A stretch of DNA of 64,000 nucleotides from a virus. Of the stretch, positions 6,278-50,699 are shown one piece after another. The stretch is taken from the IMG/VR virus record IMGVR_UViG_3300045988_129434; one strand, written 5' to 3'. Position numbers and translations under genes: made by a program. The notes below the pieces were generated by a model. The model was not told the origin of the DNA, searched no databases, and saw only the letters and a program-made list of their open reading frames with translations. The first letter of the stretch is position 1; each line of letters opens with the position of its first letter.

Positions 6278-6731
6278 TTTATCAAATAAATATTTCAGAA
6301 CTGAGTCCGATGAACAGAGTAATAGGCTATTGAGAATTGCAGTAGCGCAAGGCTATCATCTTCCGAAAGGCATTGCCGCTTTAATTGGAAACCGAATTTT
6401 TAAATTCACAGGCTTTCCATATAAGGCGGTATCATTTCCAGAGAATATATCGGCAAATGAAGCAGTTATTGACTATGCAGACGCATTCGGTGATGAAGAT
6501 AGGGAACTCAAAGAGATTTTAGATCGTTCAACTAGATTCTGTCGAGCGCATGGGTATAGTATACTTAGAATTTATGCAGATGAAAATGACAATGAGTATT
6601 CCGGTTCCGCTTTTGCGAAAACAGTTGATGGAGGTAACATTAAGACTGAAACACGGCTTCCTAAACCAAGAAAAGTTACTCTGGAAGAAATTGAACAGCG
6701 ATTCGGCTGTCCTATCGAAATAGTGTCATAA
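6270..6731 (+). CDS. hypothetical protein (153 aa)
   Basis: ATG 6270 overlaps the end of the recombinase gene; ORF track 6213..6731. Confidence 0.6.
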   Translation: MIDLSNKYFRTESDEQSNRLLRIAVAQGYHLPKGIAALIGNRIFKFTGFPYKAVSFPENISANEAVIDYADAFGDEDRELKEILDRSTRFCRAHGYSILRIYADENDNEYSGSAFAKTVDGGNIKTETRLPKPRKVTLEEIEQRFGCPIEIVS

Positions 6732-6876
6732 AATTTTACCACAATTTTCGCCTACCGGCAAACACATCAGATAAATTCTAATTCACTTACAAAAGATATA
6801 CCCATTCGGGCAAATAATTCCACACAAAAGATAAAATCGGGCAATCCGAAAAAATTTCTAAAAACAAAAAAGCGTT

Positions 6877-6930
6877 CCGTCAACCGCAATCTATTGGATA
6901 TGACTGTTAATCATAAAACCTACGGCGGAA
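6877..6930 (+). ncRNA. mini tRNA-Asn mimic: closing helix plus an exact copy of the tRNA-Asn anticodon stem-loop
   Basis: ATGACTGTTAATCAT (6900-6914) is identical to 7037-7051 of tRNA-Asn; TTCCG..CCG (6877-) can pair with CGG-CGGAA (-6930). Confidence 0.3.
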
Positions 6931-7009
6931 TGAAATTAAGTTTCCTGTATCAGCAACTTATTAAGCACAAAATTGGGGATTTTGAAAGCAAAAAAACAGG
7001 AAATGATAA

Positions 7010-7082
7010 GGGAGCATAGCTCAGTTGGCAGAGCGCATGACTGTTAATCATGTTGTCGAAGGTTCAAGTCCTTCTGTTCCCG
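7010..7082 (+). tRNA. tRNA-Asn (anticodon GTT)
   Basis: Hand-folded cloverleaf: GGGAGCA/TGTTCCC acceptor, GCTC-AGTTGGCA-GAGC, CATGA-CTGTTAA-TCATG, GAAGG-TTCAAGT-CCTTC. Confidence 0.9.
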
Positions 7083-7087
7083 TTTTG

Positions 7088-7191
7088 GTTCTCATACAGC
7101 AGAATGAAGATGTGTCATTGGTTCAAGTCCAATCATTCCTGAAATGGAATGTCGCCCAGCTGGTAGGGCAATCTATTTATATTTTGAGAAC
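7088..7191 (+). ncRNA. circularly permuted tRNA-like RNA, YrlA/Y-RNA-like (module 1)
   Basis: Closing helix GTTCTCA(7088-7094)/TGAGAAC(7185-7191); T-arm ATTGG-TTCAAGT-CCAAT(7117-7133); loop-capped acceptor-like helix CATTCC-TGAAAT-GGAATG(7134-7151); D-arm GCCC-AGCTGGTA-GGGC(7154-7169). Confidence 0.55.
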
Positions 7192-7205
7192 TGTAAAAAA
7201 CAGAG

Positions 7206-7291
7206 GTACGCAGCAACAGCAATGACTTAATGGCAAATGATTTGTATGCAAAACAAAGAAAATACGGTTCGATTCCGTGAAATATGCGTAC
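7206..7291 (+). ncRNA. T-arm-containing structured RNA (module 2)
   Basis: GTACGCA(7206-7212)/TGCGTAC(7285-7291) helix enclosing the T-arm TACGG-TTCGATT-CCGTG(7263-7279); no D or acceptor mimic found. Confidence 0.35.
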
Positions 7292-7317
7292 TGTAAAAAC
7301 AACTAAAAACCTATGTA

Positions 7318-7414
7318 ACGCCAAACAGCAATTTATTCGCTTAAAAAAGCATATTGGTTCAACTCCAATCGTATCCGTGGAGGATATGCCCTAGTGGTCA
7401 AGGGAAATTGGCGT
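7318..7414 (+). ncRNA. circularly permuted tRNA-like RNA, YrlA/Y-RNA-like (module 3)
   Basis: Closing helix ACGCCAA(7318-7324)/TTGGCGT(7408-7414); T-arm ATTGG-TTCAACT-CCAAT(7353-7369); capped helix CGTATCC-GTGGA-GGATATG(7370-7388); D-arm CCCT-AGTGGTCA-AGGG(7389-7404). Confidence 0.55.
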
Positions 7415-7431
7415 AATGAAAGGAGATTTTT

Positions 7432-8886
7432 ATGAATTTTTCAGATGTAATGAGAGAAGAAAGCAAGTGGACAAAGACCGAGAACGGAGCAGACGCAAAG
7501 AATACTACGGATTCTGCTTTGCTGGATATGTTTGCGACTATCGGTGCCATGCGTACCAGATCAGAGGATGAGATTGTCAAGAAATTTGAGCTGGCATTTC
7601 AGGAAGACTCGTTAGGCGCTATGCGTTGCCTGTTCTATGCCAGAGACATTCATGGAGGTTTAGGCGAGCGCCGTGTGTTCCGTGTTCTTTTGACATACAT
7701 AGCAAATAAGCATACAGAAGAATTAAGAAAGAACATAGATAAAATACCAGAATACGGACGCTGGGACGACGTTTATTCTCTCGTCGGAACGAAATTAGAG
7801 GATAATATGTGGGATGATGTAAAGTATCAACTTTTAAAAGATAAAGTATTGATGAAGAATGAAGAGTCGTCTTCCCTTCTCGCTAAATGGCTCAAAAAGG
7901 CTGATGCTTCTAGCCCAAACACTCGGAAACTGGGAATTTATACGGCAAAGAAGTTGGGAATGTCCGTATATGACTATAAACGTCTTTGTAATCGCCTGAG
8001 AAAGCATATTGATGTTGTGGAGCAGCGCATGTCGGCCCGCCAGTGGGATACCATTAATTATCCGGCGGTTCCATCCAGGGCAATGATGAATTACCGAAAG
8101 GCATTTGCTCGTCACGATCAGGAACGTTTTGAAGAATATATAAACAAAGTTTCCTCTGGCGAACAGAAAATCAATGCAGCCACTCTTTATCCGTATGACA
8201 TTGTTGAGAAAATTTTGTATCACAGTGAGAATAGCAAGGTTCTGGAGGCTCAATGGGATAATCTGCCGAACTATGTTGACGGAGATGTAAATGCTGTGGT
8301 TATGGCAGATGTTTCCGGTTCGATGTACGGTAGACCGATGGCAACCTCTATTGGACTGGCAATGTACTTTGCAGAACGGAATAAAGGTGCATATCATAAT
8401 CTGTTTATAACGTTTTCAGGTCACCCAGAGTTTGTGGAAATAAAAGGAAAAACCATAACTCAAAAAATCAACTTCATTTCAAGAGCAAGTTGGCAGACGA
8501 TTACAGACCTTGAAGCTGCCCTTTTGAAGATTCTTGATGTGGCGATTGAAAATCATTGTTCACAAGAAGAAATGCCGAAATCACTCATTATCATTTCTGA
8601 TATGGAGATCGATTACTGTACTTGCCAGAAACATCGGGAGAACTTTTATGACTATGTTTCCAGGGTATATGAGGAACATGGATATAAAATTCCAAATGTA
8701 GTTTTCTGGAATGTAAATAGTCGGCATGATATATTTCTGGCTGATAAAAACCGTAAGGGAGTACAGCTTGTTTCCGGTCAGTCTGCAAGTACATTTAAGA
8801 ATTTGATTGGATGCGTGGACAAAACGCCGGTTGAGATGATGTATTCGGTTCTGAACAGCGAACGCTATCAGGCGATTCAGATTTGA
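7432..8886 (+). CDS. DUF2828/TROVE-like N-terminal region plus C-terminal vWA domain (Ro60-like architecture)
   Basis: 484 aa; KTENGADA..SALLDMF..CLFYARDIHGGLGERRVFR (DUF2828-type); MIDAS motif MADVSGSM plus IIISDME in the C-terminal half; AAAGGAG RBS. Confidence 0.8.
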   Translation: MNFSDVMREESKWTKTENGADAKNTTDSALLDMFATIGAMRTRSEDEIVKKFELAFQEDSLGAMRCLFYARDIHGGLGERRVFRVLLTYIANKHTEELRKNIDKIPEYGRWDDVYSLVGTKLEDNMWDDVKYQLLKDKVLMKNEESSSLLAKWLKKADASSPNTRKLGIYTAKKLGMSVYDYKRLCNRLRKHIDVVEQRMSARQWDTINYPAVPSRAMMNYRKAFARHDQERFEEYINKVSSGEQKINAATLYPYDIVEKILYHSENSKVLEAQWDNLPNYVDGDVNAVVMADVSGSMYGRPMATSIGLAMYFAERNKGAYHNLFITFSGHPEFVEIKGKTITQKINFISRASWQTITDLEAALLKILDVAIENHCSQEEMPKSLIIISDMEIDYCTCQKHRENFYDYVSRVYEEHGYKIPNVVFWNVNSRHDIFLADKNRKGVQLVSGQSASTFKNLIGCVDKTPVEMMYSVLNSERYQAIQI

Positions 8887-13606: not shown

Positions 13607-13695
13607 TGGGCTATCGCCAAACGGTTAAGGCACCGGGCTTTGACCCCGGAAGAGAAGGAACGCTCTTTACGCTGGTTCGAATCCAGCTAGCCCAG
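13607..13695 (+). tRNA. tRNA-Gln (anticodon TTG) with an atypical 21-nt extra arm
   Basis: TGGGCTA/TAGCCCA acceptor (U1-A72), G73, GCC-AAACGGTTAA-GGC, CCGGG-CTTTGAC-CCCGG, variable region AAGAGAAGGAACGCTCTTTAC, GCTGG-TTCGAAT-CCAGC. Confidence 0.75.
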
Positions 13696-13917
13696 TTGGT
13701 TTCTGATTTTGGCATAGAAACTTTCTCCACCACCTACGGCGCAAGGCTGTGACAAAAGGAGATTCAAATGCTCCGGGTGGTTTTGTCCGACTACTGTTTG
13801 AGGACGTAAAATAAAAGAACAGCGTGTAGATTGGCGGTAAGGCGATACGATTCTAAATACCGCATGGTGCCTAAAGCAGCACGATAAATAATGCAAAAAC
13901 GGGAGAAATCCCGTTAC
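13696..13917 (+). ncRNA. structured inter-tRNA spacer RNA (unknown class)
   Basis: ORF-free; local helices GTTTC/GAAAC, GGAG/CTCC, GCGGTA/TACCGC, ACGGG-AGAAAT-CCCGT (13899-13914). Confidence 0.3.
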
Positions 13918-13991
13918 GGATCATTAGCTCAGATGGTGAGAGCCGTTGCCTCATAAGCAGAAGGTCGTAGGTTCGAGTCCTACATGATCCA
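13918..13991 (+). tRNA. tRNA with CAT anticodon (elongator Met or Ile2; not initiator-like)
   Basis: GGATCAT/ATGATCC, GCTC-AGATGGTGA-GAGC, anticodon loop CTCATAA, GTAGG-TTCGAGT-CCTAC. Confidence 0.85.
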
Positions 13992-14050
13992 TTCCGCCAT
14001 AGCTAGTACCCTTTGGCTGTCAGGTACGGCAGCGGCTATGGTAGGAACCA

Positions 14051-14133
14051 CGAGACGTAGCTAAATTGGCAGAGCACTGAAAGCCGGATACAACTATGTA
14101 CAGAAGATGGCGGTTCGAATCCGCCCGTCTCGA
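14051..14133 (+). ncRNA. tRNA-like RNA with canonical acceptor, D and T arms but an aberrant 27-nt anticodon arm
   Basis: CGAGACG/CGTCTCG, GCTA-AATTGGCA-GAGC, GGCGG-TTCGAAT-CCGCC; anticodon region CTG-[AAAGCCGGA]-TACA-ACTA-TGTA-CAG. Confidence 0.6.
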
Positions 14134-14318
14134 TTTTACCACTTAGCAAGATGGGTATACCTGCTACGAAATCCTGTGAAAAAAACTTTTCCAGAGAGAT
14201 AAGACCAAAGGCCGTGAGGAGCAGTAGTCGGTGATTCTGGAAGATTCCCGGAAGTATGACGATTAGAAAGTTGACCTTATTGGGATGACGCTTTCAAAGT
14301 GGTTTTATAAGGGAATAT
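14134..14318 (+). ncRNA. structured inter-tRNA spacer RNA closed by a long-range helix
   Basis: ACCACTT(14138-14144)/AAGTGGT(14297-14303); inner TTCCAGA(14189-14195)/TCTGGAA(14236-14242); TAGCA/TGCTA hairpin. Confidence 0.4.
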
Positions 14319-14390
14319 GCCGATATAGTTCAATGGCAGAACACCGCCCTTGTAAGGCGGATGTTATCAGTTCGAGTCTGGTTATCGGCT
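14319..14390 (+). tRNA. tRNA-Thr (anticodon TGT)
   Basis: GCCGATA/TATCGGC, GTTC-AATGGCA-GAAC, CCGCC-CTTGTAA-GGCGG, ATCAG-TTCGAGT-CTGGT. Confidence 0.9.
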
Positions 14391-18694: not shown

Positions 18695-18946
18695 ATGAAC
18701 TGTTATGATTGCAAATTTTATAATACAGATTATGAATTTGATGGAGAAGATGAATATGAAATAGGTATTTGCGAAGTCGGACACAATGAATACCTTAATT
18801 CTGATGAAGAATGTCCATATTTCAAAAAGTACCTTCAGAAAAAATATGTTGAAACAGATACAGAATGTGATGTATGCGAATATCTTTTTGATTGCATGAA
18901 GCTGATTTGGCAGCACATTAAAGGGTGGTGTGAACATGAATCATAA
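18695..18946 (+). CDS. Cys-rich acidic protein (83 aa)
   Basis: MNCYDCKFY...CEVGH..ECPYF..CDVCEYLFDC. Confidence 0.55.
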   Translation: MNCYDCKFYNTDYEFDGEDEYEIGICEVGHNEYLNSDEECPYFKKYLQKKYVETDTECDVCEYLFDCMKLIWQHIKGWCEHES

Positions 18947-20099
18947 TTCAAAATTATGTTGCTTCATAAATAAAAATGAAAATTGGAGAGAACTCCTTCA
19001 AAACGAATATAAGATAAACGTGAAAGAAGAATATCCGTTTGCAATATTCAACTATGGTATAGATAGCGATTTTTCAGATCTGATTGTGCAGGAGGCAAGA
19101 GGAATCATTATAGACCTTGAAAATCTGGAGGTAGTTTGTTGGCCGTTTAGAAAGTTCGGAAATTATAACGAAAATTACGCAGACAATATTGATTGGAATA
19201 CTGCCAGAGTGCAGGATAAAATTGATGGAAGTATTATTAAACTGTGGTGGAATAGAACAACAGGAAAGTGGCAATTATCTACAAACAGAACGATAAATGC
19301 GGGAACAGCACTTGCAAATCAAATGACGCAAGAAACATTTCTTGATGTGATAAGGAAAGCGGATAACTATAACGAAATTGCTTTGAAATTACCGATTTTC
19401 AATAAGGATTATACTTTTATTTTTGAACTGGTCAGTCCAGAAACGCAGGTGGTTGTAAAATATCCTAAACCATATCTATATCATATCGGAACGAGAAATA
19501 ATATTAGTGGTATGGAGGAGGATTCGGATATAGGAATCGAAAAGCCAAAAGAATATTTATTAAGAACTCTTGATGATTGTCTAATTGCCGCAAATGAACT
19601 TAATAAGGCTAATGATGGACAGGTTCACGGTGTAAAGAAAGAGGGTTTTGTAGTTGTAGATGAGAACTGGAATAGGATAAAGATAAAATCGCCAGATTAT
19701 TTAATGCTCCATAGAATGTCGGCCAATGCAAACTTTTCTAAAGAGAGAATCGTTGGAATGATACGGGATGGAACTGTGAGCGTTCGGGATATATGTAATG
19801 TTTTTCCGAACTTTGCTCATTATTTTAAATTCTATGATTTCAAAATATCAGAGCTGGAATATCAGGCAAAATTGTTTTGCGATTTGGTTGACAGAATTTA
19901 TGAAGAGTATAGTCACGAGAGGAAAGCAGTCGCTAACATCATAAAGAAACACAGATTGGCCGGATTAGGATTTAAACACTTAGATAGCGGAAAATCTGGA
20001 TATGAATTACTGGGAGAAATGCCGTTATCGCAATATTGCAAATATATTCCAGATTACCAACCGGAGAGATTAAGCGAATTGTTTTATAGGAACAAATAA
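18936..20099 (+). CDS. ATP-dependent RNA ligase, T4 RnlA (Rnl1) family
   Basis: Motif I QDKIDGS; FIFELVSPETQVVVKY and EGFVVVDENWNRIKIKSPDYLMLH parallel T4 Rnl1 ANFEFVAPTNRIV and EGYVAV..FKIKSDWYVSLH (from memory). Confidence 0.75.
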   Translation: MNHNSKLCCFINKNENWRELLQNEYKINVKEEYPFAIFNYGIDSDFSDLIVQEARGIIIDLENLEVVCWPFRKFGNYNENYADNIDWNTARVQDKIDGSIIKLWWNRTTGKWQLSTNRTINAGTALANQMTQETFLDVIRKADNYNEIALKLPIFNKDYTFIFELVSPETQVVVKYPKPYLYHIGTRNNISGMEEDSDIGIEKPKEYLLRTLDDCLIAANELNKANDGQVHGVKKEGFVVVDENWNRIKIKSPDYLMLHRMSANANFSKERIVGMIRDGTVSVRDICNVFPNFAHYFKFYDFKISELEYQAKLFCDLVDRIYEEYSHERKAVANIIKKHRLAGLGFKHLDSGKSGYELLGEMPLSQYCKYIPDYQPERLSELFYRNK

Positions 20100-20170
20100 A
20101 ATATCGTAGAGAGCCAAGCACAAGCGGAGAGCCAAATTTCTTACTAAGTAGGGAAGGAGGCTCTTTTGTT

Positions 20171-21880
20171 TTGCGAGAAGGAACGCTTGAATGGTACAAA
20201 AAAATTTTTTCGGAAATCTTAAAAGACGACATGACACAATACCAAAACCAAATAGATAGCTGGCAGCTTCTTTTGAATATGAAGCAAGATTTAGGTTTTG
20301 AGGATAAAGAAATCCGTGATTACGCTATGAAGATCAGCCAGTACACACATAAGATGGCCGACTATGTAGCAGGGCAGACGGGAAGCGGAAAGTTTAACGA
20401 TTTGTACTATAAGTTGTTATTGTTGGAAGCTCAAAATTATCAAGTGGATAGCGGACTTCTATATCTGGAAAAGAATAGAGTTCCCAAGGAACGATTTTAT
20501 GAGCCGCGCCGAGAGGTTTTTATAAAGCACCAAATTATCCAGTCATTACAGGATTTGATGGATGATAAACTTGATATTTTTGCTTTGAGCGTTCCACCGG
20601 GTTGTGGTAAATCAACTCTGGAAGATTTTTTCTTATCCCTTGTTGGTGGATGGTTCCCAAATGATTTTAACCTATCCTCAGCGCATAGTAGCATTTTGAC
20701 CCGTTCCCTTTATGATGGCGTATTGGAAATTATAAATGACCCGGTAGAGTATACATGGCATGAAATATTTCCTAATGTAAAGCTGACTGGAACAAATGCT
20801 AAGGAAACCACAGTAAACCTCGAAAGGAATGGGCGATTTAAAACATGGACTTTTCGTTCCATAGATGGTTCGTTGACGGGAGCCACAAGATGTAATCGTT
20901 TTTTGACAGCAGATGACTTGGTATCTGGAATTGAAGAAGCACTGAACAAGTCACGCCTGGAAACACTTTGGACAAAGGTTGTGAATGATCTTCGTTCCAG
21001 ACGACTTGAAGGGTGTAAAGAAATCTATATTGCCACAAGATGGTCTGTCCATGACCCGATTGGAAAACTACAACAGCTATATGAAGGAAATCCCAAAGCC
21101 AGATTTATTGCGGTTCCGGCTTTGAACGAAGATGGCGAGAGTAACTTCATGTTTGCGGTGAATGGATTTTCAAAGAAATACTTCATGGACGCTAAGGAAT
21201 CTATGGATGATCTATCCTTTAAATGCCTGTATCAGCAACAGCCGATTGAGCGAGAGGGATTACTATTTCCTACAGATGAACTGCGCCGCTTTTTCTTCAA
21301 TCGGGAGCAAGTACCGGAAAAGCAGACAGAGTTTATTATTATGCCAGAGCGGACGCCTGATGCTATATGGGCGGTGTGCGATACAAAGGATACAGGAGCG
21401 GATTTTGAATCTTTACCGATTGCATATCAATTTGGAGAAGATTTTTTTATACCGGATGTAGTATTTGATGACACAACAGATTATGACACATTGGATATGA
21501 AATCCGCTAATATTTTGATTCGACACAATCCCCATAAGATAAGGTTTGAATCAAATAGTGCAGGAGGCAGAGTCGCGCATAATGTTCAAAAATTGATAGA
21601 TGGAAAATGTCGAGCACAGATCGAGCCTGAGAGAACACAAGCGAACAAAGAAACCAAAATATTAGTCAATTCTGATTGGATTAAAAAACACTGTATATTT
21701 TTAGACCCAAGTTTATATACGCCAAAATCAGACTATGGTTTGTTCATGGAAAATGTGGTTACATATACAGTCAAAGTTAAGCCGCCACATGATGATGGGC
21801 CAGACTCTCTGGCAATGCTTGCAGAATATGTAGCAAGGCCAGTGCAAAAACCAACAACAATAATCAATAGTCCGATTTGA
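20171..21880 (+). CDS. terL: terminase large subunit
   Basis: 569 aa; Walker A VPPGCGKST; acidic nuclease-half motifs; directly upstream of the portal; TTG start after GGAAGGAGG. Confidence 0.85.
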   Translation: MREGTLEWYKKIFSEILKDDMTQYQNQIDSWQLLLNMKQDLGFEDKEIRDYAMKISQYTHKMADYVAGQTGSGKFNDLYYKLLLLEAQNYQVDSGLLYLEKNRVPKERFYEPRREVFIKHQIIQSLQDLMDDKLDIFALSVPPGCGKSTLEDFFLSLVGGWFPNDFNLSSAHSSILTRSLYDGVLEIINDPVEYTWHEIFPNVKLTGTNAKETTVNLERNGRFKTWTFRSIDGSLTGATRCNRFLTADDLVSGIEEALNKSRLETLWTKVVNDLRSRRLEGCKEIYIATRWSVHDPIGKLQQLYEGNPKARFIAVPALNEDGESNFMFAVNGFSKKYFMDAKESMDDLSFKCLYQQQPIEREGLLFPTDELRRFFFNREQVPEKQTEFIIMPERTPDAIWAVCDTKDTGADFESLPIAYQFGEDFFIPDVVFDDTTDYDTLDMKSANILIRHNPHKIRFESNSAGGRVAHNVQKLIDGKCRAQIEPERTQANKETKILVNSDWIKKHCIFLDPSLYTPKSDYGLFMENVVTYTVKVKPPHDDGPDSLAMLAEYVARPVQKPTTIINSPI

Positions 21881-21898: not shown

Positions 21899-22312
21899 AT
21901 GGATAAAAGAAAATCAAGTTTAAAAAATTACGGAATTTCTAGTAAGCGTTATAAAGAACTTTGCGGATTTTGTGAGCAATATCCAGAATGGAAGGAAGAA
22001 TTGGCATATAATGTGAATACTGTAAAAAGCCAACAAATAGGTAATGTTTCTTATGGAAGTAAAAATAATATAAGTAATAAGACAGCCGATCTTGCATTGA
22101 AACGAGTGTTTTTGCAAAAAAAAGTGGACTTGATAGAAAAGACAGCTAAGGATGCGGCAGGGGAATTATGGAATGAAATCATTAAATCGGCATGTTATGA
22201 GCAACCGTTCTGGTATCTTAGAGATATTTCAGAAATACCGATCAGTCGGTCAGCTTTTTATGATTATAGGCGGTATTTTTTCTTTTTGTTGAATCAACGA
22301 AAAGATACATAA
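21899..22312 (+). CDS. ArpU/RinA-like late transcriptional regulator (putative)
   Basis: 137 aa; C-terminal IPISRSAFYDYRRYFFFLL resembles the HTH tail of phage late activators; sits just upstream of cassette A. Confidence 0.4.
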   Translation: MDKRKSSLKNYGISSKRYKELCGFCEQYPEWKEELAYNVNTVKSQQIGNVSYGSKNNISNKTADLALKRVFLQKKVDLIEKTAKDAAGELWNEIIKSACYEQPFWYLRDISEIPISRSAFYDYRRYFFFLLNQRKDT

Positions 22313-22314: not shown

Positions 22315-22405
22315 ATGAGTACCAACGATGTTTAAAATGATGGTATAATGATATTATCAAATATTACAAATAAAAGAAAGCACTTGGCGAGTCCAGGTGC
22401 TTTTT
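22315..22405 (+). promoter_or_regulatory. late promoter-plus-terminator cassette, copy A
   Basis: ATGAGTACC(22315)-29 nt spacing-TATAAT(22344-22349, with TGG); hairpin AGCACTTGG/CCAGGTGCT plus T5 (22379-22405). Confidence 0.6.
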
Positions 22406-22571
22406 GTTGGAAATTGTAAAAGTGGAAAAAACAAGAGAAAACAGATTGAAAGATTATAGAAGAATAAAAGGAAAGAAATGGGTAGACATACCAACCAAAT
22501 TTGAAAAGCGTGTGTCGGGTTCCGGGGTCCAATTTGGCGGAAAGTATGTAAAAACATAATGGGTGGTAAGA

Positions 22572-31382: not shown

Positions 31383-32081
31383 ATGAAGCTAAGATTAGTT
31401 AAAAATGGAGATTTCTTAGGTACAAAATGTGACTTCTATGTAGATGAAAGTAATAACATTTATATGAGTCGTACTCAAATTGGATATGCGTTGCAGTACA
31501 AAGACCCTGCCAATGCTATCAAGAATATTCATAACAAGAATAGAGATAGGTTCGATAAAATGTCAGTCATATTAACGGGTGCTCAGTTTGAACCCCCGTT
31601 AAAAAACAATAGATCTGCAAATAGAGTGTATATGTATATTGAGCAAGGAATATACGCAATGTGCGCAAGGTCAAGACAGCCTATTGCGGATGATTTTAAT
31701 GATTGGGTATCGGATGTAATTATTTCTATTCGCAAGAATGGATATTACATTGCTTCTGAAAAAGATGACAAGCGGCTGGGAATCCGCGAAGAAACGAAGA
31801 AAGTCCGTCGAATGGAAACGGACACTATCAAAAAATATGTGGAGTACGCAAAATCGCAGGGCAGCATTCATGCGGATATGTACTACCAGAATTTTACGAA
31901 GCTGGTTCAGAACTGTTTAGGAATCGAAGCCGGGACAAGAGATGATTTAGACCAGAAAACGCTTTTACGACTGAAATCGTTGGAAACTTTAATTGATATG
32001 CGACTGGAAAATTTATTAGAAACAGACATTCCCTATAAAGATATGTATGCAGATGTGAAAGAACTGATTCGAAGTATTTGA
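31383..32081 (+). CDS. Bro-N domain antirepressor-like protein
   Basis: FLGTKCDFYVDESNNIYMSRTQIGYAL..NAIKNIH.. typical Bro-N; AAGGAG RBS. Confidence 0.7.
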   Translation: MKLRLVKNGDFLGTKCDFYVDESNNIYMSRTQIGYALQYKDPANAIKNIHNKNRDRFDKMSVILTGAQFEPPLKNNRSANRVYMYIEQGIYAMCARSRQPIADDFNDWVSDVIISIRKNGYYIASEKDDKRLGIREETKKVRRMETDTIKKYVEYAKSQGSIHADMYYQNFTKLVQNCLGIEAGTRDDLDQKTLLRLKSLETLIDMRLENLLETDIPYKDMYADVKELIRSI

Positions 32082-32092
32082 TGGGAGGAACT

Positions 32093-32455
32093 ATGCAGAA
32101 TTGTAAAGTAAATATTTTGGGGACTGAATACAGGATTGAGAAACATAATGGGAACGATGATAAGGATTTAAAACCATCGAACAAAATGGGCTACTGCTTT
32201 TATGATGAACATTTAATCGTGTATACAGATTTAAGTACTGACGATGAATGGGGAAAAGAAACAGAAGCTGCTAGGGAGAGCAGAGAGAAAATAACAATTC
32301 GCCATGAAATATTCCACGCATTTTTATTTGAAAGCGGAATGGAACAATGCTCCAGCGAGACGGAGGCATGGGCAACAAACGAGGAAATGGTTGACTGGTT
32401 CGCCATCCAGTCCCCTAAAATATTTAAAGTATTTAAGGAATTGGATATTCTTTAA
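32093..32455 (+). CDS. small HExxH zinc-metallopeptidase-like protein (ImmA/IrrE-like)
   Basis: ITIRHEIFHAF; GGGAGG before ATG 32093. Confidence 0.6.
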   Translation: MQNCKVNILGTEYRIEKHNGNDDKDLKPSNKMGYCFYDEHLIVYTDLSTDDEWGKETEAARESREKITIRHEIFHAFLFESGMEQCSSETEAWATNEEMVDWFAIQSPKIFKVFKELDIL

Positions 32456-33339: not shown

Positions 33340-33885
33340 ATGGCAAAGAAAACAATAAAGATTAATCTATTTGACGGCGGAAAATCATTACAACAGGCGA
33401 TTCGGCAGATAGAACAATATAAAAATGATTTGCCGAGAAAGTGTGAGGAGATTTGTAGGCGGTTATCGGAAATTGGACAGCAGACAGCTCTTGTGGCGAT
33501 CAATGAAGTACCGCAAGGAAAAGCGGTTACTCTGAAAATGGATATAGATTCCTCAAAGACAGGTTGCAAGGCTGTGTTAATAGCCACTGGAAAGAATGTG
33601 TCAAGTTCGGACGACAGAAGTTTTAATTTACTTTTGGCAATAGAATTTGGGGCCGGTATTCACTATAACAAATCATCATCTAATCCTAAGTCTAAAGATT
33701 TTAAGTTGGGCGTTGGTACTTTTCCAGATCAGACACACGCTTTCGATTCAAATGGTTGGTATTATTTGGGAGATGATGGAGAATGGCATCATTCCTATGG
33801 AGTCAAAGCAACTATGCCAATGTATAAGGCCGGAACCGAGATAAGGAAAAATATTGATAAGGTAGTGAGGGAGGTGTTCAAGTGA
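33340..33885 (+). CDS. neck/tail-completion protein, putative
   Basis: 181 aa; position only. Confidence 0.4.
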   Translation: MAKKTIKINLFDGGKSLQQAIRQIEQYKNDLPRKCEEICRRLSEIGQQTALVAINEVPQGKAVTLKMDIDSSKTGCKAVLIATGKNVSSSDDRSFNLLLAIEFGAGIHYNKSSSNPKSKDFKLGVGTFPDQTHAFDSNGWYYLGDDGEWHHSYGVKATMPMYKAGTEIRKNIDKVVREVFK

Positions 33886-34274
33886 CTATCCATGAAATGA
33901 TAAACACAATTTATTCTCGATGGACTGATGCGATAAAGGGTAAAGTAACGGGATATTCAATGGAAAATAGCACTACGGTTACAAAATTACCTTACGCAAC
34001 AATGTACTTCACAGGCGTTCCGGGTAGCGATTGGGATTTAAAGGGAGATGAGGCTGCGGTAACACCGACGGCACAGATTGATATTTACACAAAAGGGCAA
34101 AAAGCATTAACACAGGCTTATGAGATTGATGAATTATCTCATGCCTGCCTTACAAAAATTGGATTTAGGCGAAGTATGGGGCCGGAGCTGATTCAGTCCA
34201 CAGACCCGTCTATCAAACGTCTTACGAGTAGGTATACAAGAATTGTTGGCTATGGGGATTCTTTGGAAATATGA
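33882..34274 (+). CDS. tail-completion/tail-terminator-like protein, putative
   Basis: 130 aa; ATGA coupling; LPYATMYFTGVPG..AQIDIYTK pattern. Confidence 0.45.
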   Translation: MTIHEMINTIYSRWTDAIKGKVTGYSMENSTTVTKLPYATMYFTGVPGSDWDLKGDEAAVTPTAQIDIYTKGQKALTQAYEIDELSHACLTKIGFRRSMGPELIQSTDPSIKRLTSRYTRIVGYGDSLEI

Positions 34275-34358
34275 GTACCTACAAGGTTTAAATATGAATT
34301 ATAATATAAAATAGAAGAATTAAGAAAAGAGGAATCTTGGAAACAAGGTTCCTTTTTT
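34271..34358 (+). promoter_or_regulatory. late promoter-plus-terminator cassette, copy B
   Basis: ATGAGTACC(34271)-29 nt spacing-TATAAT(34300-34305); 10-bp hairpin AGGAATCTTG/CAAGGTTCCT plus T6 (34330-34358). Confidence 0.6.
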
Positions 34359-34379: not shown

Positions 34380-34610
34380 GTGCAGATTAACGATAAAGTT
34401 TACAATATTTTGAAATATGTCGCCCAGATTGCGCTTCCTGCATTGGGGACATTGTATTTTGCCCTAGCTGGAATCTGGGGATTCCCTTATGGAGAAGAGA
34501 TCGTTGGAACTATTACGGCGGTTGATACTTTCCTGGGAGTTCTTTTGGGAATTAGTGCGGCGACGTACAGCAGAAAGAATCAGGCCATTGACAACAAAGA
34601 AACGAAATAG
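34380..34610 (+). CDS. holin (Dp-1-type family)
   Basis: 76 aa; VYNILKYVAQIALPALGTLYFALAGIWGFPYGEEIVGTITAVDTFLGVLLGIS; GTG start after AGGAGG. Confidence 0.7.
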   Translation: MQINDKVYNILKYVAQIALPALGTLYFALAGIWGFPYGEEIVGTITAVDTFLGVLLGISAATYSRKNQAIDNKETK

Positions 34611-34853: not shown

Positions 34854-35552
34854 ATGTTAGTAGAAATTGTTGGGAAAAGATATGAGGAAAAGTTAGTTAC
34901 AACAAGCCTGAGAATAGCAGAAACATTTACCTACTATGATGAAGAAAGCGGAAGGCAATATACAAGAGAACACAAAGCTGTTCTAAGAGCCATTCGCGAT
35001 TTAAAATGCAGCGAAAAATTTCGCGGTGAACATTATTCACCGTCAGAATACGTGGACGAAAGAGGGAAAAGGCAACCATGTATAATTATGGATAAAGACG
35101 GCTTTGTATTACTTGTTATGGGATTTACAGACCCGAAAGCAATGTTTTACAAGGAAAAATATATTGAAGCCTTTAATTCCATGGAGTCCGAACTCAAACG
35201 TATTTACACAGAACGACAGCAATGGCAGATTGAAAGAGATAAAGGCGTTGTAATTCGTCATATCTTAACCGATACAATTAAGATGAAAATATCCGACAGT
35301 CCACATAAGCGATTTGCTTATCCTAATTATACTAATTTGATTTATCGAACTTTGTTCGGGAAAACAGCAAAAGAATTAGAGGAAGAATTTGGGGTGAAAC
35401 CGAAAGAAAATTTAAGAGACTATTTTACTGGGGAATCATTATCCCAAGTTCAGGGCATGGAAATGCTTGTAAGTAGCCTTATAAACTGTGGCTGGGGCTA
35501 CAAAGAGATAAAAGAATTTATTGAAACAGAATCCAAGAAAATGATAGCTTAA
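34854..35552 (+). CDS. Rha-family phage regulatory protein
   Basis: VTTSLRIAETF..EHKAVLRAIRDL..FVLLVMGFT typical of Rha. Confidence 0.7.
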   Translation: MLVEIVGKRYEEKLVTTSLRIAETFTYYDEESGRQYTREHKAVLRAIRDLKCSEKFRGEHYSPSEYVDERGKRQPCIIMDKDGFVLLVMGFTDPKAMFYKEKYIEAFNSMESELKRIYTERQQWQIERDKGVVIRHILTDTIKMKISDSPHKRFAYPNYTNLIYRTLFGKTAKELEEEFGVKPKENLRDYFTGESLSQVQGMEMLVSSLINCGWGYKEIKEFIETESKKMIA

Positions 35553-38606: not shown

Positions 38607-39748
38607 AGACAATTTGCCCCTTGTCGCTGTAAGGCGGCATAGAAAATCGACCAAAATCGGTAAAAGCTAAATTGATAAAATGAAAAATATATCGGGTATT
38701 TATAAGATAACTAACAACGTTAATGGAAAATTTTATATTGGCTCATCGCAAAATATCTCTCGTAGATGGTATGACCACAAAAGGGAACTTCGCATACAGA
38801 AACACCATAATAAGTATCTACAACGTGCTTGGAATAAGTATGGAGAAGAAAATTTTTCTTTTGAGATAGTTGAAGAATGCAAAGTAGAGGAACTAAGTGA
38901 TCGAGAGCAATTATACATCGAAAAATATGTAAACAGTGATTTTTGCTATAATATTTCGATTGACACAATCGCTCCTATGCGTGGGAAAAAACATTCGGAA
39001 GAAGCGAAGCGAAAAATGTCAGAATCCAGAAAGGGATTAATGGTAGGACCGAAAAATCATATGTATGGAAAGCATTTATCAGATGAAGAGAAGAAAAAGC
39101 TTTCCTTGGCTTTTTCGGGAGAGAAAAATCCTATGTATGGAAAACATTTATCCGATGAGTCTAAAAGAAAAATATCGGAGGCTCATAAAGGAACGAAATG
39201 TCCAGAATATTTAAAAAGAAGATATAGACTTGAAATGCTTGGGAGCGGTAATCCGTTTTACGGAAAACATCACAGTAAAAAGTCTTTAGAGTTAATGAGC
39301 AAGAATAGAACGGGGCTTTTAAAAGGAGCAGATAGTCCTGTTAGTAGAAAAGTTGTTAGAATATCCGAGAATACCAATGAAATCAAAATATATGATACGG
39401 TAACAGAAGCTGCAAAAAGCAATAATGCTCAAAGGTCACACATAGCACTTGTGTGCAGGGGAGAAAGAAAACATGCAGGCGGATACCGGTGGATGTATTT
39501 TGAAGATTATCAACATGCTAATACCGAGGTAAGCGATCAGATTGCGAAAGGCTGATTGCCACCGTAACGCGTAGGAGTTGAAAAAATATAATACTCCCAA
39601 GAGTGGTTGACAACCATAATAGGTAAATATACGAGATATTTTATTTTATGGTTGAAAATGTACGCTGAACCGGGGATGAAGCAACATCCCGTAATGCGAG
39701 GAAACTCCCGGAAGCATCGGATAAAAAGCCGGTGCGGTAACATAATTG
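38607..39748 (+). mobile_element. group I intron (putative) carrying a GIY-YIG homing endonuclease
   Basis: 5' splice site after U38606 with a G-U pair to GCCC (38616-38619); last nt G39748; splicing restores ..RAGIAG|EIEPLRQLGVDM..; downstream part has no start codon or RBS. Confidence 0.6.
38680..39555 (+). CDS. GIY-YIG homing endonuclease (I-TevI-like, NUMOD3 repeats)
   Basis: [23 protein letters not shown]; three xxYGKHxSxExKxKxS repeats; C-terminal DNA-binding region. Confidence 0.85.
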
Positions 39749-42700
39749 GAAATCGAACCTTTGCGGCAGCTTGGCGTAGATATGACTGTGGCATCCTTGG
39801 AGGCATATGCTTTAGCAAATGGAATCACAAAATCGTATATGTCCATGTCGCAAGCTGAGAAGGTAATGCTGCGGTACAATTATTTAATGTCTGTTACATC
39901 TGACCAACAAGGAGACTGGGCCAGGACTTCACAAAGCTTTGCAAACCAATTCCGATTATTAAAACTGAACTTTCAATCTTTATCAGCAACCATGGGACAA
40001 GGTTTCATAGCTGTAATATTGCCGGTTATACAAGGCTTAAATGCGCTCTTGGCCAAACTCCAAGAGGTAGCAAAAGCGTTTCGGAATTTTCTCTATGTTT
40101 TGACAGGATATGAATCACCTGGCGGCCAGTCTGGTATTGTAAATGATCTTGCAGGCGTTGGGGATGCATCTGTTGGACTTGATGATCTTGCAGGCGCGGG
40201 AGAGGATGCTTCATCTGGTTTAGACGATGCGACAGAAAGCGCCCAGGATTTAAAGAAAGCATTATCAGTTTTATCGTTTGATGAATTGAATCAGTTATCG
40301 TCGATTGATACCTCTTCGCTGGATTCCAGCGTTGGGGATTTAGGGGATATTAGCGACGGTATTAACAATAGCTTAGGAAATGGCGAACTGGTTCCGAGTG
40401 ATATTTTCAAGGATACCCCGGTAGAAAAATATATTTCTGAGTTAGCCGAAAGAATGAGAAAGGCAGCCGAAAAAGAGGACTGGGAAGAACTTGGAAAGAT
40501 CATTGCAGGGGAAATTAACAAAGGACTGAAGAAGATTTACGATGTTATTAATTGGAATAACGTCGGACCTAAGATAACCGCATTTGTAACAGCTTTTACC
40601 AGAACTTTTAATAGCCTAGTTGATAATATTGACTGGAATTTAATGGGGAGAACCATTGGGGCCGGAGTCAATACAATCGTAAATACCTTGAATCTTCTTA
40701 TTGGGGATGGAGGAATTGATTTTACCAATATTGGGACAAAGATTGCCACAGGGTTACGTGGCGCAATCAAAGAAATAGACTGGGGGAACCTGGGTAATCT
40801 TTTAGGAAATTACTTTATGATTTCTTGGGACATGCTTTCTGGATTTGTGCAGGAGATGTCTAAGGAAGACGGAGCAGGTATTACGGGCTGGGATGAGTTA
40901 GGGACTTCATTAGGAGAAGCTGTCAATGGTATATTCGAGAAGATTGATTTTGGCGAAATTGGAACTACTTTAGTAACCGGAATTAACGGAGCATTTTCAA
41001 CCCTTAAAAGTTTTACGGATGAAGTAGAATGGGACGATCTCGCTACAAATATATCTACAGGAATAAATAATGCCATTCATAATTTCAACTGGCCTGAGAA
41101 TGGACAAGCGTTAAATCAGTTTATTGGCGACTTCCTGGGAGCTTTGCTTCAAATAGCACAAGATACAGATTGGGAAGAGTTAGGAAGGGGCATTGGGGAA
41201 TTTCTAGGAGAGATCGACTGGCTTAAACACTTAGGAACGGTTATATCCATAATTGTAGAAACTTTAGGGGGACTATTTGATGGATTAGAAGAATCTGGAA
41301 TGGCTGGGAAAATAGCAGCGTTTCTAGGAAAAGCTTTTATTGCGGTAAAAATAGCGAATATAACAGGAATAGGAAGTCTTATCGGAAAAATAGTTTCCCT
41401 TATGGGAACACGGTTTATGTCCAGGAGTTCTACAGGGAGCTTAGGGCAAAGTATAGGAACATTTATTAATAGAGCTTTTTCTATTGGTGGGTCTTTAGCA
41501 AAAGCCGGAGGCGCGGCTTTAGCAGTTGATTTATTTGGAAAATTGAAGGATGTTATTTCTGGAACCAGAAAAGAAACAATAGAAGCCACTACTGCTTTTA
41601 CAGTCATAGAAAGAGCATTATCTAAATTTGTAGAAAGCGGAGACATTACATTAGACCAATTCTATAAATTAGCTAATGGTGTGAATGATATTAATAATGG
41701 GACAAAAACTTTTGATGATGTTTTGACCGAAGTGAATTCTACATTAGAAGAAGCAGGGGTTTCTTCAGAAGAATTTCAAAATGCAATTTATGAAGCAACA
41801 GAGCAAACAGGAATTAATGTTGATAAATTGTCTAATAAAGTGATAGCAGCAATGGAATCAGCAGGATATTCTTTTACTGAAACAAGCGATAAGGTTAGCG
41901 AGAATTCTATCAAAATTGGAAATAATATTATAAATGCGGCGAGCGAAATAGATAAGGCAAAAGGTATTTGGATTCAGGGACTCAATGGATGGGAACAGGT
42001 AACTGGGGAAAAAGCTCTTGGCATTTATGCTGGAATTCAATCAGGCTTATATCCTGAGAACGGACAAGGATATTATGATTTAGGAAATGGCGTACTTGCA
42101 AGTTTTGGAAATGGTATTACAGAAGGAACAGAGAATTTCAAAACCACGTTAGATACCACATTGCTCCAAGCGTTAAGAGACAAGCTTCCTGAAGGCTATA
42201 CGTTGGGATATGATAATGGAAAATTCACTGTTCAGCAATATGAAGCTGGAATTAACGAAGGGGCACTCACATTAGGGGAAACCTTAAACAACGCTACTAT
42301 CGCAAAGATCAACAGCATTCTTCCCCAAGGAAGTATTCTTACATATCAAAATGGACAGTGGACAATACAACAGTATGCTTCGGGCATGAGTCAAAATGGC
42401 GAAGGTACGGACTTGGCGATTAGTGCTGCTACCATAGACAAAATTAGCGCTATTTTACCAGAGGGAGTTACAATCGCATACAATAACGGAACACAAACGA
42501 TCGATGGATATAAGAGTGGACTGAATGATACTGGGGATACAGTTTTTGATTCATTAAAAAGAGTGTTCTTGGATGGAATAAATTTAGATGAAGAATTGAA
42601 GGAAAAATATTCCGGTTATGCAGCTTTGTCTGTAAAAGGATATAACGAAAAAATAGAAGAGTTAAAATCTGAAACTGAAAACCAAATGGAAGATTTAGCT

Positions 42701-43390
42701 CATAATGGAATCATGTTACCGTTTGCTGGAATGCTTGAAATTAATTCACCTTCTAGGGTATTTGAAGGATATGGCGAAAATGTATCTGAAGGGTTGGCGA
42801 AAGGTATTGATGCAAAGGCCGATGAACCTACCAGCAGAATAGAAAATATAGGAAGCTCCTTGATAGACATGATTAGCGACACAATGAATAATCTTTCCGA
42901 CAAATTCAGTGAGGGTGAGAACTCTGCACAAAATAGCGCGAATTCCATTCAAGATGCTTTTTCTAATTTATATATTCCGCTCCCGCATGTGAACTGGGAT
43001 TGGAATTATGTCAGTGTAGGAGACTGGGAGATACCAATTCCTGATTTTTCTATTGATTGGTATAAAACTGGTGGACTTTTTACTAGGGCCACGATTGCAG
43101 GAATAGGTGAAGCTGGCAATGAGGCGGTTTTGCCATTGGAAAATAAACGGACTATGGGGATGATCGCAGATAGTATCTTAGCTAATGCATCTGTAGGCAT
43201 GGATGAAAGAATTTTAACAGAGGCCGTAGCAAGAGGTGTAGCAATGGCTATGATGAATAATAATCAGAATCAGCCGCCTATTAATGTATACGCAACATTA
43301 TATACTGAAGATAACGAAGTTTTAGCTAGGGCAGTACAAAAGGGGCAGGACAGCATAGATTACAGGTTTAATCCTTCGGTAGCTTGGTAA
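39749..43390 (+). CDS. tape measure protein, exon 2
   Basis: EIEPLRQLGVDMTVASLEAYALANGITKSY.. conserved TMP core; 1213 aa; track ORF begins at a TTG only because of an upstream TAA. Confidence 0.75.
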   Translation, partial: EIEPLRQLGVDMTVASLEAYALANGITKSYMSMSQAEKVMLRYNYLMSVTSDQQGDWARTSQSFANQFRLLKLNFQSLSATMGQGFIAVILPVIQGLNALLAKLQEVAKAFRNFLYVLTGYESPGGQSGIVNDLAGVGDASVGLDDLAGAGEDASSGLDDATESAQDLKKALSVLSFDELNQLSSIDTSSLDSSVGDLGDISDGINNSLGNGELVPSDIFKDTPVEKYISELAERMRKAAEKEDWEELGKIIAGEINKGLKKIYDVINWNNVGPKITAFVTAFTRTFNSLVDNIDWNLMGRTIGAGVNTIVNTLNLLIGDGGIDFTNIGTKIATGLRGAIKEIDWGNLGNLLGNYFMISWDMLSGFVQEMSKEDGAGITGWDELGTSLGEAVNGIFEKIDFGEIGTTLVTGINGAFSTLKSFTDEVEWDDLATNISTGINNAIHNFNWPENGQALNQFIGDFLGALLQIAQDTDWEELGRGIGEFLGEIDWLKHLGTVISIIVETLGGLFDGLEESGMAGKIAAFLGKAFIAVKIANITGIGSLIGKIVSLMGTRFMSRSSTGSLGQSIGTFINRAFSIGGSLAKAGGAALAVDLFGKLKDVISGTRKETIEATTAFTVIERALSKFVESGDITLDQFYKLANGVNDINNGTKTFDDVLTEVNSTLEEAGVSSEEFQNAIYEATEQTGINVDKLSNKVIAAMESAGYSFTETSDKVSENSIKIGNNIINAASEIDKAKGIWIQGLNGWEQVTGEKALGIYAGIQSGLYPENGQGYYDLGNGVLASFGNGITEGTENFKTTLDTTLLQALRDKLPEGYTLGYDNGKFTVQQYEAGINEGALTLGETLNNATIAKINSILPQGSILTYQNGQWTIQQYASGMSQNGEGTDLAISAATIDKISAILPEGVTIAYNNGTQTIDGYKSGLNDTGDTVFDSLKRVFLDGINLDEELKEKYSGYAALSVKGYNEKIEELKSETENQMEDLAHNGIMLPFAGMLEINSPSRVFEGYGENVSEGLAKGIDAKADEPTSRIENIGSSLIDMISDTMNNLSDKFSEGENSAQNSANSIQDAFSNLYIPLPHVNWDWNYVSVGDWEIPIPDFSIDWYKTGGLFTRATIAGIGEAGNEAVLPLENKRTMGMIADSILANASVGMDERILTEAVARGVAMAMMNNNQNQPPINVYATLYTEDNEVLARAVQKGQDSIDYRFNPSVAW

Positions 43391-43459
43391 TTTTTTTGAA
43401 AGCCTTGACGAAAATCTCTTTTTTGTAGTACAATGTATTACAAGAAAGGAGATGAGTTT

Positions 43460-43693
43460 ATGAGCTTTTCAATTAGACTTACCCCAGAAGAAAAATCTCT
43501 TGCCGAGAGTTATGCAAAACTTCATTCATTGTCTGTTGGCGAGGCTTTTAAAAGGGCATTATTTGAGAGAATCGAGGATGAGTACGATATTGTTGTAGCA
43601 GATGAAGCTTACAAAGAATACTTGGATAGTGGCTGTAAATCTACTCCTATCGCTGATTTTTGGAGGGAGTTAGACGATGAAATACAATGTTGA
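43460..43693 (+). CDS. relB: RelB/DinJ-type RHH antitoxin
   Basis: MSFSIRLTPEEKSLAESYAKLHSLSVGEAFKRA; own promoter TTGACG-17-TACAAT (about 43405-43436). Confidence 0.7.
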   Translation: MSFSIRLTPEEKSLAESYAKLHSLSVGEAFKRALFERIEDEYDIVVADEAYKEYLDSGCKSTPIADFWRELDDEIQC

Positions 43694-43931: not shown

Positions 43932-43982
43932 GTTTATGATATGTAAGTTTCCCCGGCTTTTATAAGCCGGGGAATTTTTACG

Positions 43983-44771: not shown

Positions 44772-44917
44772 AACCTGTAAAGGATGTTCGTCAAGAAGTA
44801 AATTACTGATAATAACACCTCCTATAGTGATTCGTTGAACCCTTCCTTACCTTCGCAATAAAAAACGAATTTAGAATTATTTTTTATTTGTCCACGTTTT
44901 AATCATCCGAAATTATT

Positions 44918-45349: not shown

Positions 45350-45388
45350 ATGAATATACCTCCTATTATGATAATACAGGCATTGGGG

Positions 45389-47286: not shown

Positions 47287-47309
47287 AAAAAGGAGGAAGG
47301 ATAAAACAA

Positions 47310-50675: not shown

Positions 50676-50699
50676 TTATGATAAGCGGAGGATTTTACT

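Follow-up and report, generated by a model that had tools for sequence, protein, structure and literature searches.

A Thrice-Repeated Promoter-Like Block and Terminator in the Late Region of a Gut Phage Genome, Linked to the Gene of a Candidate Late Regulator

The DNA analyzed here, which we refer to as the window, is a stretch of 64,000 nucleotides (nt) from IMG/VR virus record IMGVR_UViG_3300045988_129434 and represents a large mosaic phage or prophage of 38.5% G+C. Near-identical contigs of 34 to 92 kb were found in human-gut metagenomes. The late region of the window contains three copies (A, B, and C) of a cassette in which a conserved 9-mer is followed by a TATAAT hexamer and then by a hairpin with a T run. 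The gene order is terL, the gene for a 137-amino-acid (aa) protein, copy A, a 51-aa open reading frame (ORF) and the portal gene, the scaffold and major capsid genes, copy B, the holin gene, a tail module, a 9.3-kb insertion, copy C, and the distal tail genes. The gene for the 137-aa protein (21899 to 22312, plus strand; phrog_11237) adjoins copy A and is our candidate for a late regulator that acts on the cassettes. A megablast search of INPHARED with the cassette region and the tape-measure gene returned no match.

The 9-mer ATGAGTACC occurs exactly three times in the window (both strands scanned), each time on the plus strand: at 22315 to 22323 (copy A), 2 nt after the stop codon of the 137-aa gene; at 34271 to 34279 (copy B); and at 52728 to 52736 (copy C). 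A preliminary description of this DNA, made from the letters alone, had reported a fixed spacing of 29 nt between the first base of the 9-mer and the first base of TATAAT. The exact scan bore this out in all three copies, with the -10 hexamers on the plus strand at 22344 to 22349, 34300 to 34305, and 52757 to 52762. The looser pattern GAGTAC-N20-26-TATAAT gave three matches against 0.10 expected, and a count of three was reached in none of 100 shuffles. The cassette trio is a real feature, far beyond chance. The same description had noted the absence of a TTGACA-like -35, and indeed none lies at a spacing of 16 to 18 nt in copies A to C, where ACCAAC, ACCTAC, and ACCTAT stand instead. It had further placed the stop codon of the upstream gene in or next to the motif in copies B and C. 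For copy B this is correct, as the TGA of the ORF at 33882 to 34274 (34272 to 34274) falls within the 9-mer; at copy C, only a doubtful 22-codon ORF ends 3 nt upstream of the motif.

The hexamer of copy A is TGn extended, the only one of the three to be so, and this extension is present in most relatives. A second -10-like hexamer, TATTAT, stands at 22352 to 22357 (plus strand) in copy A, and such tandem hexamers are kept family-wide. By analogy with TSS23, the mapped transcription start of phage phi13, transcription is predicted to begin about 7 nt past the -10, at about 22356, 34312, and 52769. The 9-mer, our proposed regulator site, would then occupy about -41 to -33, and an A-rich leader of about 20 to 25 nt would separate start and hairpin.

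Other readings of the same letters were considered and set aside. A promoter of the extracytoplasmic function (ECF) type was ruled out on spacing, as the 9-mer ends 20 nt before the -10 and 16 to 18 nt would be needed. The ATG of the 9-mer begins tiny ORFs of 6 to 8 codons, MSTNDV*, MSTYKV*, and MSTYRTEK* (22315 to 22335, 34271 to 34291, and 52728 to 52754), and MSTYSV* in the relative L120 (3417 to 3437). As leader peptides (MST(N/Y)xV*) these ORFs of A, B, C, and L120 lack a ribosome-binding site and lie upstream of the -10, and they are probably a coincidence. A leaderless AUG 7 nt past the second hexamer, reading through the hairpin, is found in some subclades only and not in the window.

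A hairpin followed by a T run lies downstream of TATAAT in all three copies, as the preliminary description had it, at distances of 29 nt (A), 23 nt (B), and 26 nt (C). In copy A the hairpin spans 22379 to 22401 (plus strand), with nine core pairs, including one G-U, a loop of CGAGT, and then T5 G TT, the T run extending to 22408. The hairpin of copy B spans 34329 to 34354, with T6 to 34358 and a ribosome-binding site 9 nt after it, and that of copy C spans 52789 to 52812, with T6 to 52817 (both plus strand). Their RNA fold energies are -17.0, -18.9, and -17.4 kcal/mol for A, B, and C (z = -3.9, -5.7, and -3.7), and no shuffle was as stable. Each has the form of an intrinsic terminator, namely, a G+C-containing stem-loop followed by at least five T, with stems of 9 to 13 pairs and T runs of T5 to T6. 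The near-identity of hairpins A and C that had been described earlier was confirmed; they differ by one pair that is compensatorily flipped (G-C to C-G). The terminated RNA from each cassette is predicted to be about 50 nt, with its U run ending near +50, and an Rfam scan matched no family at the cassettes. A consensus terminator scan missed all three hairpins; the likeliest cause is that A/T pairs beside each stem lengthen it until it takes in part of the T run. Our own scan recovered them among 30 plus-strand terminator-like sites in the 64 kb.

We next consider the relatives of the 137-aa gene. The 75 IMG/VR loci that encode a homolog of its product gave 50 distinct downstream sequences. 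Directly after the regulator stop codon, these relatives have a conserved promoter-like block, nATGnGGA-n6-GGACAT-n8-GnTATnnT-nn-TATnGT, and 15 to 35 nt past it a hairpin with a T run (T5 to T8) follows in about 43 to 45 of the 50, with stems that are unrelated in sequence and have energies of -12 to -25 kcal/mol. The recurrence in related phages that the preliminary description had suggested looking for is thus present. In 39 of 45 relatives, the next start codon with a Shine-Dalgarno sequence comes no more than 30 nt after the end of the T run; the median distance is 17 nt. This leaves too little room for a promoter past the hairpin, so that transcription of the portal and later genes must cross it. 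In a subset of seven relatives (L135, L175, L177, L180, L183, L185, and L188), the terminator lies about 40 nt further downstream (region 40 to 100 nt past the regulator stop), and the leader is longer by a part with a hairpin of its own and with stretches resembling CCUCC (anti-Shine-Dalgarno-like); this extra part hints at added translational control.

The motif upstream of the -10 varies with the regulator clade. It is ATGAGTACC in the window and in L120 (73% identical), whose diverged copy A retains this 9-mer, GTGAGTTCC in L121 to L125 (about 60% identical), ATGCGGAAA in the main clade (about 50 to 55% identical), and ATGTGAAYT in MT835477 (55%). Because such covariation could stem from linked divergence alone, agreement of the motifs within a genome is the stronger argument. 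Copies B and C, which lie 12 and 30 kb from A in unrelated flanks, bear the same 9-mer as A. Each of the two cassettes of MT835477 consists of ATGTGAAYT, 31 nt, TATAAT, and then a hairpin. Contig IMGVR_3300045988_143266 has three cassettes at the same places as the window; its copy A has diverged, with every base of the 9-mer retained. This contig was the only informative result of an exact IMG/VR scan for 9-mer-N20-TATAAT, in which most matches were due to chance. A scan of the window with a family-wide position weight matrix was dropped, as it was circular for copy A and scored shuffles equally high; the matrix missed B and C because of 1-nt register shifts.

The 137-aa protein matched phrog_11237, which has no assigned function, with an E value of 3e-53 and phrog_248, annotated as a transcriptional activator, with an E value of 9e-4. 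When 35 family members were scanned singly (E ≤ 1), 10 matched TIGR01637 (phage_arpU), with a best E value of 1.9e-5 that is apparently below the curated cutoff; no other family was matched by more than 3 of the 35, DUF1492 being matched weakly by 1. An hhalign comparison with five RinA proteins was collinear over 105 columns and weak (E = 0.013; probability, 3%). The AlphaFold 2 (AF2) model is all-helical, with a predicted local distance difference test (pLDDT) score of 82, and a Foldseek search of BFVD gave weak matches (E values of 0.2 to 9) to phage models named sigma-70 region 4, ECF sigma, DUF1492, and transcriptional activator. The N-terminal domain of the model is too small for sigma region 2, which speaks against an ECF-like sigma factor. 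At least 474 homologs are present in a large protein collection, and a Pfam domain was found in none of the 120 examined among the matches listed. Genomes of Blautia, Roseburia, Agathobacter, and other Lachnospiraceae encode homologs. The protein is likely a divergent ArpU-like Ltr protein. The earlier suggestion that this ORF encodes the regulator of the cassettes gains support from the family-wide linkage of the gene to the promoter-like block and terminator, from the clade-specific motif, and from the subthreshold ArpU match.

The layout of the cassettes resembles the late control regions of phages with Ltr-type regulators that have been studied by experiment. In those that we compared, the common order is the regulator gene, repeats, tandem -10-like hexamers, a leader, a hairpin with a T run, and the first late gene. 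In 80alpha (RinA), the rinA stop codon is followed by TGGCAGT-AAAG-TGGCAGT and then, 27 nt from the proximal repeat, by TATTAT-GA-TAGTGT; about 60 nt past these hexamers come GGTTGGCTgattatAGCCAATCC and T6 and then terS. The 80alpha 16-mer GATATTATGATAGTGT is identical to that of the relative L128. The same repeat-to-hexamer geometry is found in a phi69-type staphylococcal phage, Lactobacillus PLE2, Latilactobacillus P1, a Hujiaoplasma phage, and Paenibacillus Vegas, and Listeria A118 (gp66, ArpU family) has TGGCACTTTTT twice, followed after 27 nt by TAAAAT-GT-TATTAG. For phi13 (LtrC, also the regulator of phi55), the published positions, counted from TSS23, are -15 to -5 for the TATA box and -107 to -42 for the repeats (PMC13123087). 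Mapped on the sequence, TSS23 falls at about L253:2067, inside the second hexamer and about 29 nt upstream of the hairpin, which consists of CTCTCACattaaGTGAGGG and T5AT5 at about +29 to +58 and stands directly before the ribosome-binding site of the next gene. In TP901-1 (Alt), TATACT-TG-TATTAT follows alt, and two tRNA genes are followed by a hairpin and T run just before terS. In both Latilactobacillus P1 (L250, 987 to 1063) and TP901-1 (L254, 2135 to 2376), tRNA or tRNA-like genes separate the late promoter block from the terminator ahead of the first late gene. The late promoters of five regulator families have in common a tandem of -10-like hexamers spaced by 2 nt (TATnAT-NN-TAkTrT; window 22344 to 22357, its relatives, L247, L249, L252, L253, L254, and L255), in phages of Staphylococcus, Listeria, Lactobacillus, Lactococcus, Paenibacillus, and Lachnospiraceae.

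Like the Ltr-type systems, the window and its relatives have the regulator gene as the last gene before the late block (portal and capsid genes follow it), a regulator-specific motif that abuts or overlaps the regulator stop codon, a -10 without a -35, and a second -10-like hexamer 2 nt after the first. The distance from the TG of the proximal site to the -10 is 27 nt in 80alpha, PLE2, Vegas, and A118 and 28 nt from the TG of the 9-mer here. A terminator between the promoter block and the first late gene is likewise shared with 80alpha, phi13, TP901-1, PLE2, P1, and A118, and to these features is added the subthreshold similarity of the family to ArpU. Unlike those systems, the window has only one 9-mer in each cassette, not two to four direct repeats, and three dispersed cassettes rather than one; its first late genes are portal, holin, and tail genes, and terL lies upstream of the regulator gene, not downstream. 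The order terL, regulator, portal is unusual: phages with RinA, LtrC, or Alt have their terminase genes after the regulator gene. Collectively, the cassettes and the 137-aa gene probably represent a new and divergent system of late control of the Ltr type. The order of promoter and then terminator recurs in all of the Ltr-type regions examined, as judged from their sequences, and has apparently drawn no comment in the literature, where the terminator comes ahead of the promoter (PMC3753634) or of the start site (PMC3152322) and read-through is not discussed. In a staphylococcal phage, there was no read-through from Pcad without the Ltr protein (Quiles-Puchalt et al., PMC3753634), which indicates that the intergenic terminator there is efficient.

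Further terminators lie in the same strand of the late region of the window without a cassette, at 24095, 31313, 32479, 34760, 35543, 37025, and 43949. That between the portal and capsid genes (24095 to 24114) is kept in the counterparts in L120 and L201, with compensatory stem changes (CAGTCGG/CCGGCTG versus CACTGGG/CCTAGTG), and comparison of the window with L120 and L201 revealed no conserved promoter after it. The TATAAT at 24201 was rejected as a promoter past this terminator, since neither L120 nor L201 has kept it. Past the portal/capsid terminator there is another, small hairpin that is conserved (region 24095 to 24227).

We propose that each cassette of this Lachnospiraceae phage or prophage is a late promoter of the Ltr type, dependent on an activator, and that its promoter-proximal terminator is bypassed by regulator-dependent transcription; taken as a whole, this reading is in our judgment evenly poised between right and wrong. 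Its first element, that late promoters without a -35 are tied to the 137-aa ORF, is well supported by sequence comparison. The 137-aa ArpU-like protein would quite probably bind the 9-mer and recruit host RNA polymerase. Since the gap between terminator and gene holds no promoter, late transcripts would all cross the hairpin. Polymerase from a regulator-bound promoter may be made resistant to termination, while upstream read-through and unactivated starts would be stopped, as in the logic of lambda Q, PR', and tR'; our confidence in this step falls somewhat short of even. Unactivated starts would yield RNAs of about 50 nt, and copies B and C would restart late transcription after mosaic insertions. 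Such antitermination is plausible, the more so since in 39 of 45 relatives a promoter would not fit past the hairpin. It is tempting, if rather speculative, to extend the idea to Ltr-type regulators generally (the 137-aa family and, by extension, ArpU, RinA, LtrC, and Alt), which would confer terminator resistance and so constitute a Q-like, promoter-loaded switch built from unrelated proteins. Promoter-loaded antitermination would explain why the terminator always comes after the promoter and why more than 155 bp, with an efficient terminator among them, separate the RinA site from the mapped 5' end downstream.

Several observations weigh against this proposal. The 137-aa protein of the window matched no Pfam or NCBIfam model at E ≤ 0.1, and no ArpU, RinA, DUF1492, or Sigma70_r4 model passed; a PDB profile search and a Foldseek search against PDB gave nothing significant. 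We detected no homology to the antiterminators Q-lambda, Q21, and Q82, and Pfam/NCBIfam searches and PDB sequence and fold searches were empty for antiterminator families. The lambda late promoter is a constitutive sigma-70 promoter with a -35 and a -10, unlike the cassettes, none of which has a -35; a promoter that lacks one is probably regulator dependent rather than constitutive. Nor is a pause element evident, as the second hexamer, considered as a lambda-type sigma-dependent pause, overlaps the predicted start. A convincing terminator is missing in 4 to 7 of the 50 relatives. In most relatives of 40 to 60 kb, the main-clade cassette core has one exact match per contig, and an ungapped search for a second cassette within 10 kb on either side of the regulator gene found none in nine genome loci; multiple cassettes are therefore not general, and the presence of three is particular to this large mosaic lineage. 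In phi11 and 80alpha, 5' rapid amplification of cDNA ends (5'-RACE) placed the RinA-dependent 5' end 23 to 24 nt upstream of terS (PMC3152322), which falls downstream of the hairpin and argues against a promoter-then-terminator order there. Finally, we infer the start sites, regulator dependence, and terminator read-through of this phage from its sequence.

Of the competing explanations, the most serious is that the regulator only activates initiation. The hairpin would then be a leaky terminator of the upstream unit (the regulator operon for A and the preceding late unit for B and C), placed there by compactness and passed passively by a strong promoter. This would agree with the description of Ltr proteins as initiation activators and of the terminator as "the terminator for the ltr gene" (PMC3753634, PMC13123087), with a regulator that has no similarity to known antiterminators, and with the few relatives that have no terminator. 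If passive, on the other hand, a terminator that both late transcription and any leak must pass would lower the two equally and so would not sharpen the switch, though the promoter-then-terminator order is kept in about 43 to 45 of 50 relatives and in four other regulator families. The hairpins are also strong (-13 to -25 kcal/mol, with T5 to T8), and the staphylococcal intergenic terminator blocked Pcad read-through, while further promoterless terminators stand in the same strand ahead of the capsid genes. The conserved order, the efficient staphylococcal terminator, and the extra in-strand terminators lead us to favor regulator-dependent bypass, still tentatively, over passage of a passive leaky terminator, which we regard as possible and rather unlikely. 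A different view takes the RNA of about 50 nt as the main product, a promoter and a terminator about 50 nt apart being a complete small transcription unit, and has the late genes driven from elsewhere. A functional small RNA from PR'-tR' offers a precedent (PMC7547250). The RNA sequence is conserved neither between A and B nor between relatives, only the stem structure being kept; Rfam has no match, and an alternative promoter for the downstream late genes does not fit, which makes a small-RNA gene very unlikely.

The reverse arrangement, in which the promoter lies downstream of the hairpin and the block of 9-mer and TATAAT is only a remote regulator-binding region, would account for the RinA-dependent 5' end past the hairpin and for the need of RinA for DNA more than 155 bp upstream of it, by a mechanism that was called "more complex" (PMC3152322). 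A promoter adjoining the binding site would itself remove the RinA distance puzzle. No -10-like sequence is found past the hairpin, the T run of copy B is 9 nt from the ribosome-binding site, the start codon follows the T run at a median of 17 nt across the family, and the mapped start of phi13 is upstream of its hairpin; we consider a downstream promoter highly improbable. It is less credible still that the hairpin stabilizes or processes the 5' end of the mRNA and that its T run is incidental. Stem-loops at the 5' end stabilize mRNAs in Firmicutes, and here stem structure is kept while stem sequences vary. Protective stem-loops of this kind are generally found only a few nt from the 5' end, and the stems here begin about 20 to 25 nt from the predicted one and are followed in nearly all relatives by at least five T. 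A last alternative concerns the identity of the regulator. The preliminary description had also put forward a helix-turn-helix protein of 83 aa encoded within the head-tail block (27498 to 27749), and this protein, not the 137-aa protein, might recognize the 9-mer. It has a weak match to sigma-70 region 4 or ECF factors, and LtrA-type regulators are Sigma70_r4-like (PMC3753634). Among the fetched loci, its homologs are confined to near-identical contigs (L195 to L198), L201, and MT835477, and none is present in five other cassette-bearing loci of 20 kb (L205, L207, L208, L209, and L212). The gene adjoins no cassette, and it has no family-wide link to the cassette beyond the nearest clades, so that this candidate is scarcely worth retaining.

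The favored reading, in which the terminator is bypassed by regulator-dependent transcription, invites comparison with lambda. As with Q, PR', and tR', the regulator gene is directly upstream of the late promoter, a promoter-proximal intrinsic terminator precedes the late genes so that a short terminated RNA is predicted (6S, or StxS in Stx phages), and further in-strand terminators lie inside the late region. The regulator differs in having no homology to the Q proteins named above, and the second hexamer starts 7 to 8 nt after the first and, by analogy with phi13, spans -4 to +2 rather than lying within +1 to +25. The 6S RNA of lambda is 194 nt long, unlike the terminated RNA of about 50 nt predicted here, and the host here is a Firmicute. 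The late promoters of Mu C and P2 Ogr are similar: they show a recognizable -10 and no -35, are served by an activator site upstream, and occur more than once in a genome, before late operons (PMC2582627; PMC3152322). Their regulators are unrelated to the 137-aa protein. We know of no promoter-proximal terminator in the Mu C and P2 Ogr systems.

The cassettes would mark out how late genes are switched on in a large and unannotated family of human-gut prophages of Lachnospiraceae (Blautia, Roseburia, and Agathobacter), and for the 137-aa family, with its hundreds of homologs, both a specific function and a DNA site can now be predicted. The recurring layout of a terminator after the late promoter includes staphylococcal phages that mobilize pathogenicity islands. 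If bypass of the terminator needs regulator-dependent transcription, late control in these phages would be lambda Q-like and not a matter of activation alone. This would call for a reinterpretation of prophage induction, "active lysogeny," and the timing of transduction, and it would provide compact, orthogonal promoter-terminator switches for Firmicutes.

Turning to the neighboring genes, terL spans 20171 to 21880, and the first late block after copy A (22404 to 24092, plus strand) consists of the 51-aa ORF and the portal gene (22563 to 24092; phrog_64 portal, with SPP1_portal in near-identical contigs). The holin gene lies directly 3' of copy B (34380 to 34610, plus strand; phrog_881 holin, E = 4e-24), and the tail module includes the tape-measure gene (39746 to 43390). 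Copy B precedes the holin gene and tail module, and the second cassette of MT835477 likewise precedes its tail module. Copy C sits at the downstream edge of the 9.3-kb insertion (43433 to 52700), which, with MT835477 as the reference, separates the tape-measure gene from the distal tail genes (52859 to 55995, plus strand; a DUF6711-like protein of 130 aa and a tail protein of 915 aa) and contains minus-strand genes and terminators. The claim that the cassettes coincide with borders of mosaic insertions therefore holds for copy C and could not be shown for A and B. Plausibly, the extra copies relaunch late transcription where the operon is interrupted. The insertion contains a minus-strand DnaD-like gene (43983 to 44771), the gene for a 479-aa phrog_9700 protein, an antirepressor gene (49890 to 50675), a Fic/DOC gene (51704 to 52501; Pfam PF02661), several consensus sigma-A promoters, and terminators.

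Accessory genes also lie within the late region, namely, those for a GIY-YIG/HNH homing endonuclease, a Bro-N/Ant-like protein, and a Rha-like regulator (38680 to 39555, 31383 to 32081, and 34854 to 35552). A segment with the Ant-like gene and the ORF after it (31383 to 32455) is flanked by the terminators at 31313 and 32479, as is the Rha-like gene by those at 34760 and 35543. Upstream of the cassettes, a terminator in the region 20127 to 20175 (-16.9 kcal/mol) ends about 6 nt before the start of terL and leaves no room for a promoter, so that terL and the regulator gene are themselves behind a terminator. In the promoter-dense left end of the window, a sigma-A-type promoter, TTGATT-18-TATAAT with a TG, is followed 25 nt on by a strong terminator (1712 to 1745; -15.7 kcal/mol, T7); this unit (1657 to 1752) may encode a small RNA of about 60 nt or be a further case of a terminator close to its promoter.

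Just upstream of terL, the near-identical relative L197 has an insertion of an IS605-family OrfB/TnpB (Cas12f-like) gene with a ribbon-helix-helix (RHH) gene (6429 to 7907). The window has a T4 Rnl1-like RNA ligase gene (18930 to 20099) and five tRNA genes (7010 to 7082; 13607 to 14390), and in the near-identical contigs L195 and L196 (6077 to 8201) the gene for a 310-aa KTI12/AAA_33 kinase-like protein precedes the RNA ligase gene. Together, the RNA ligase, kinase-like, and tRNA genes suggest a possible tRNA repair module.

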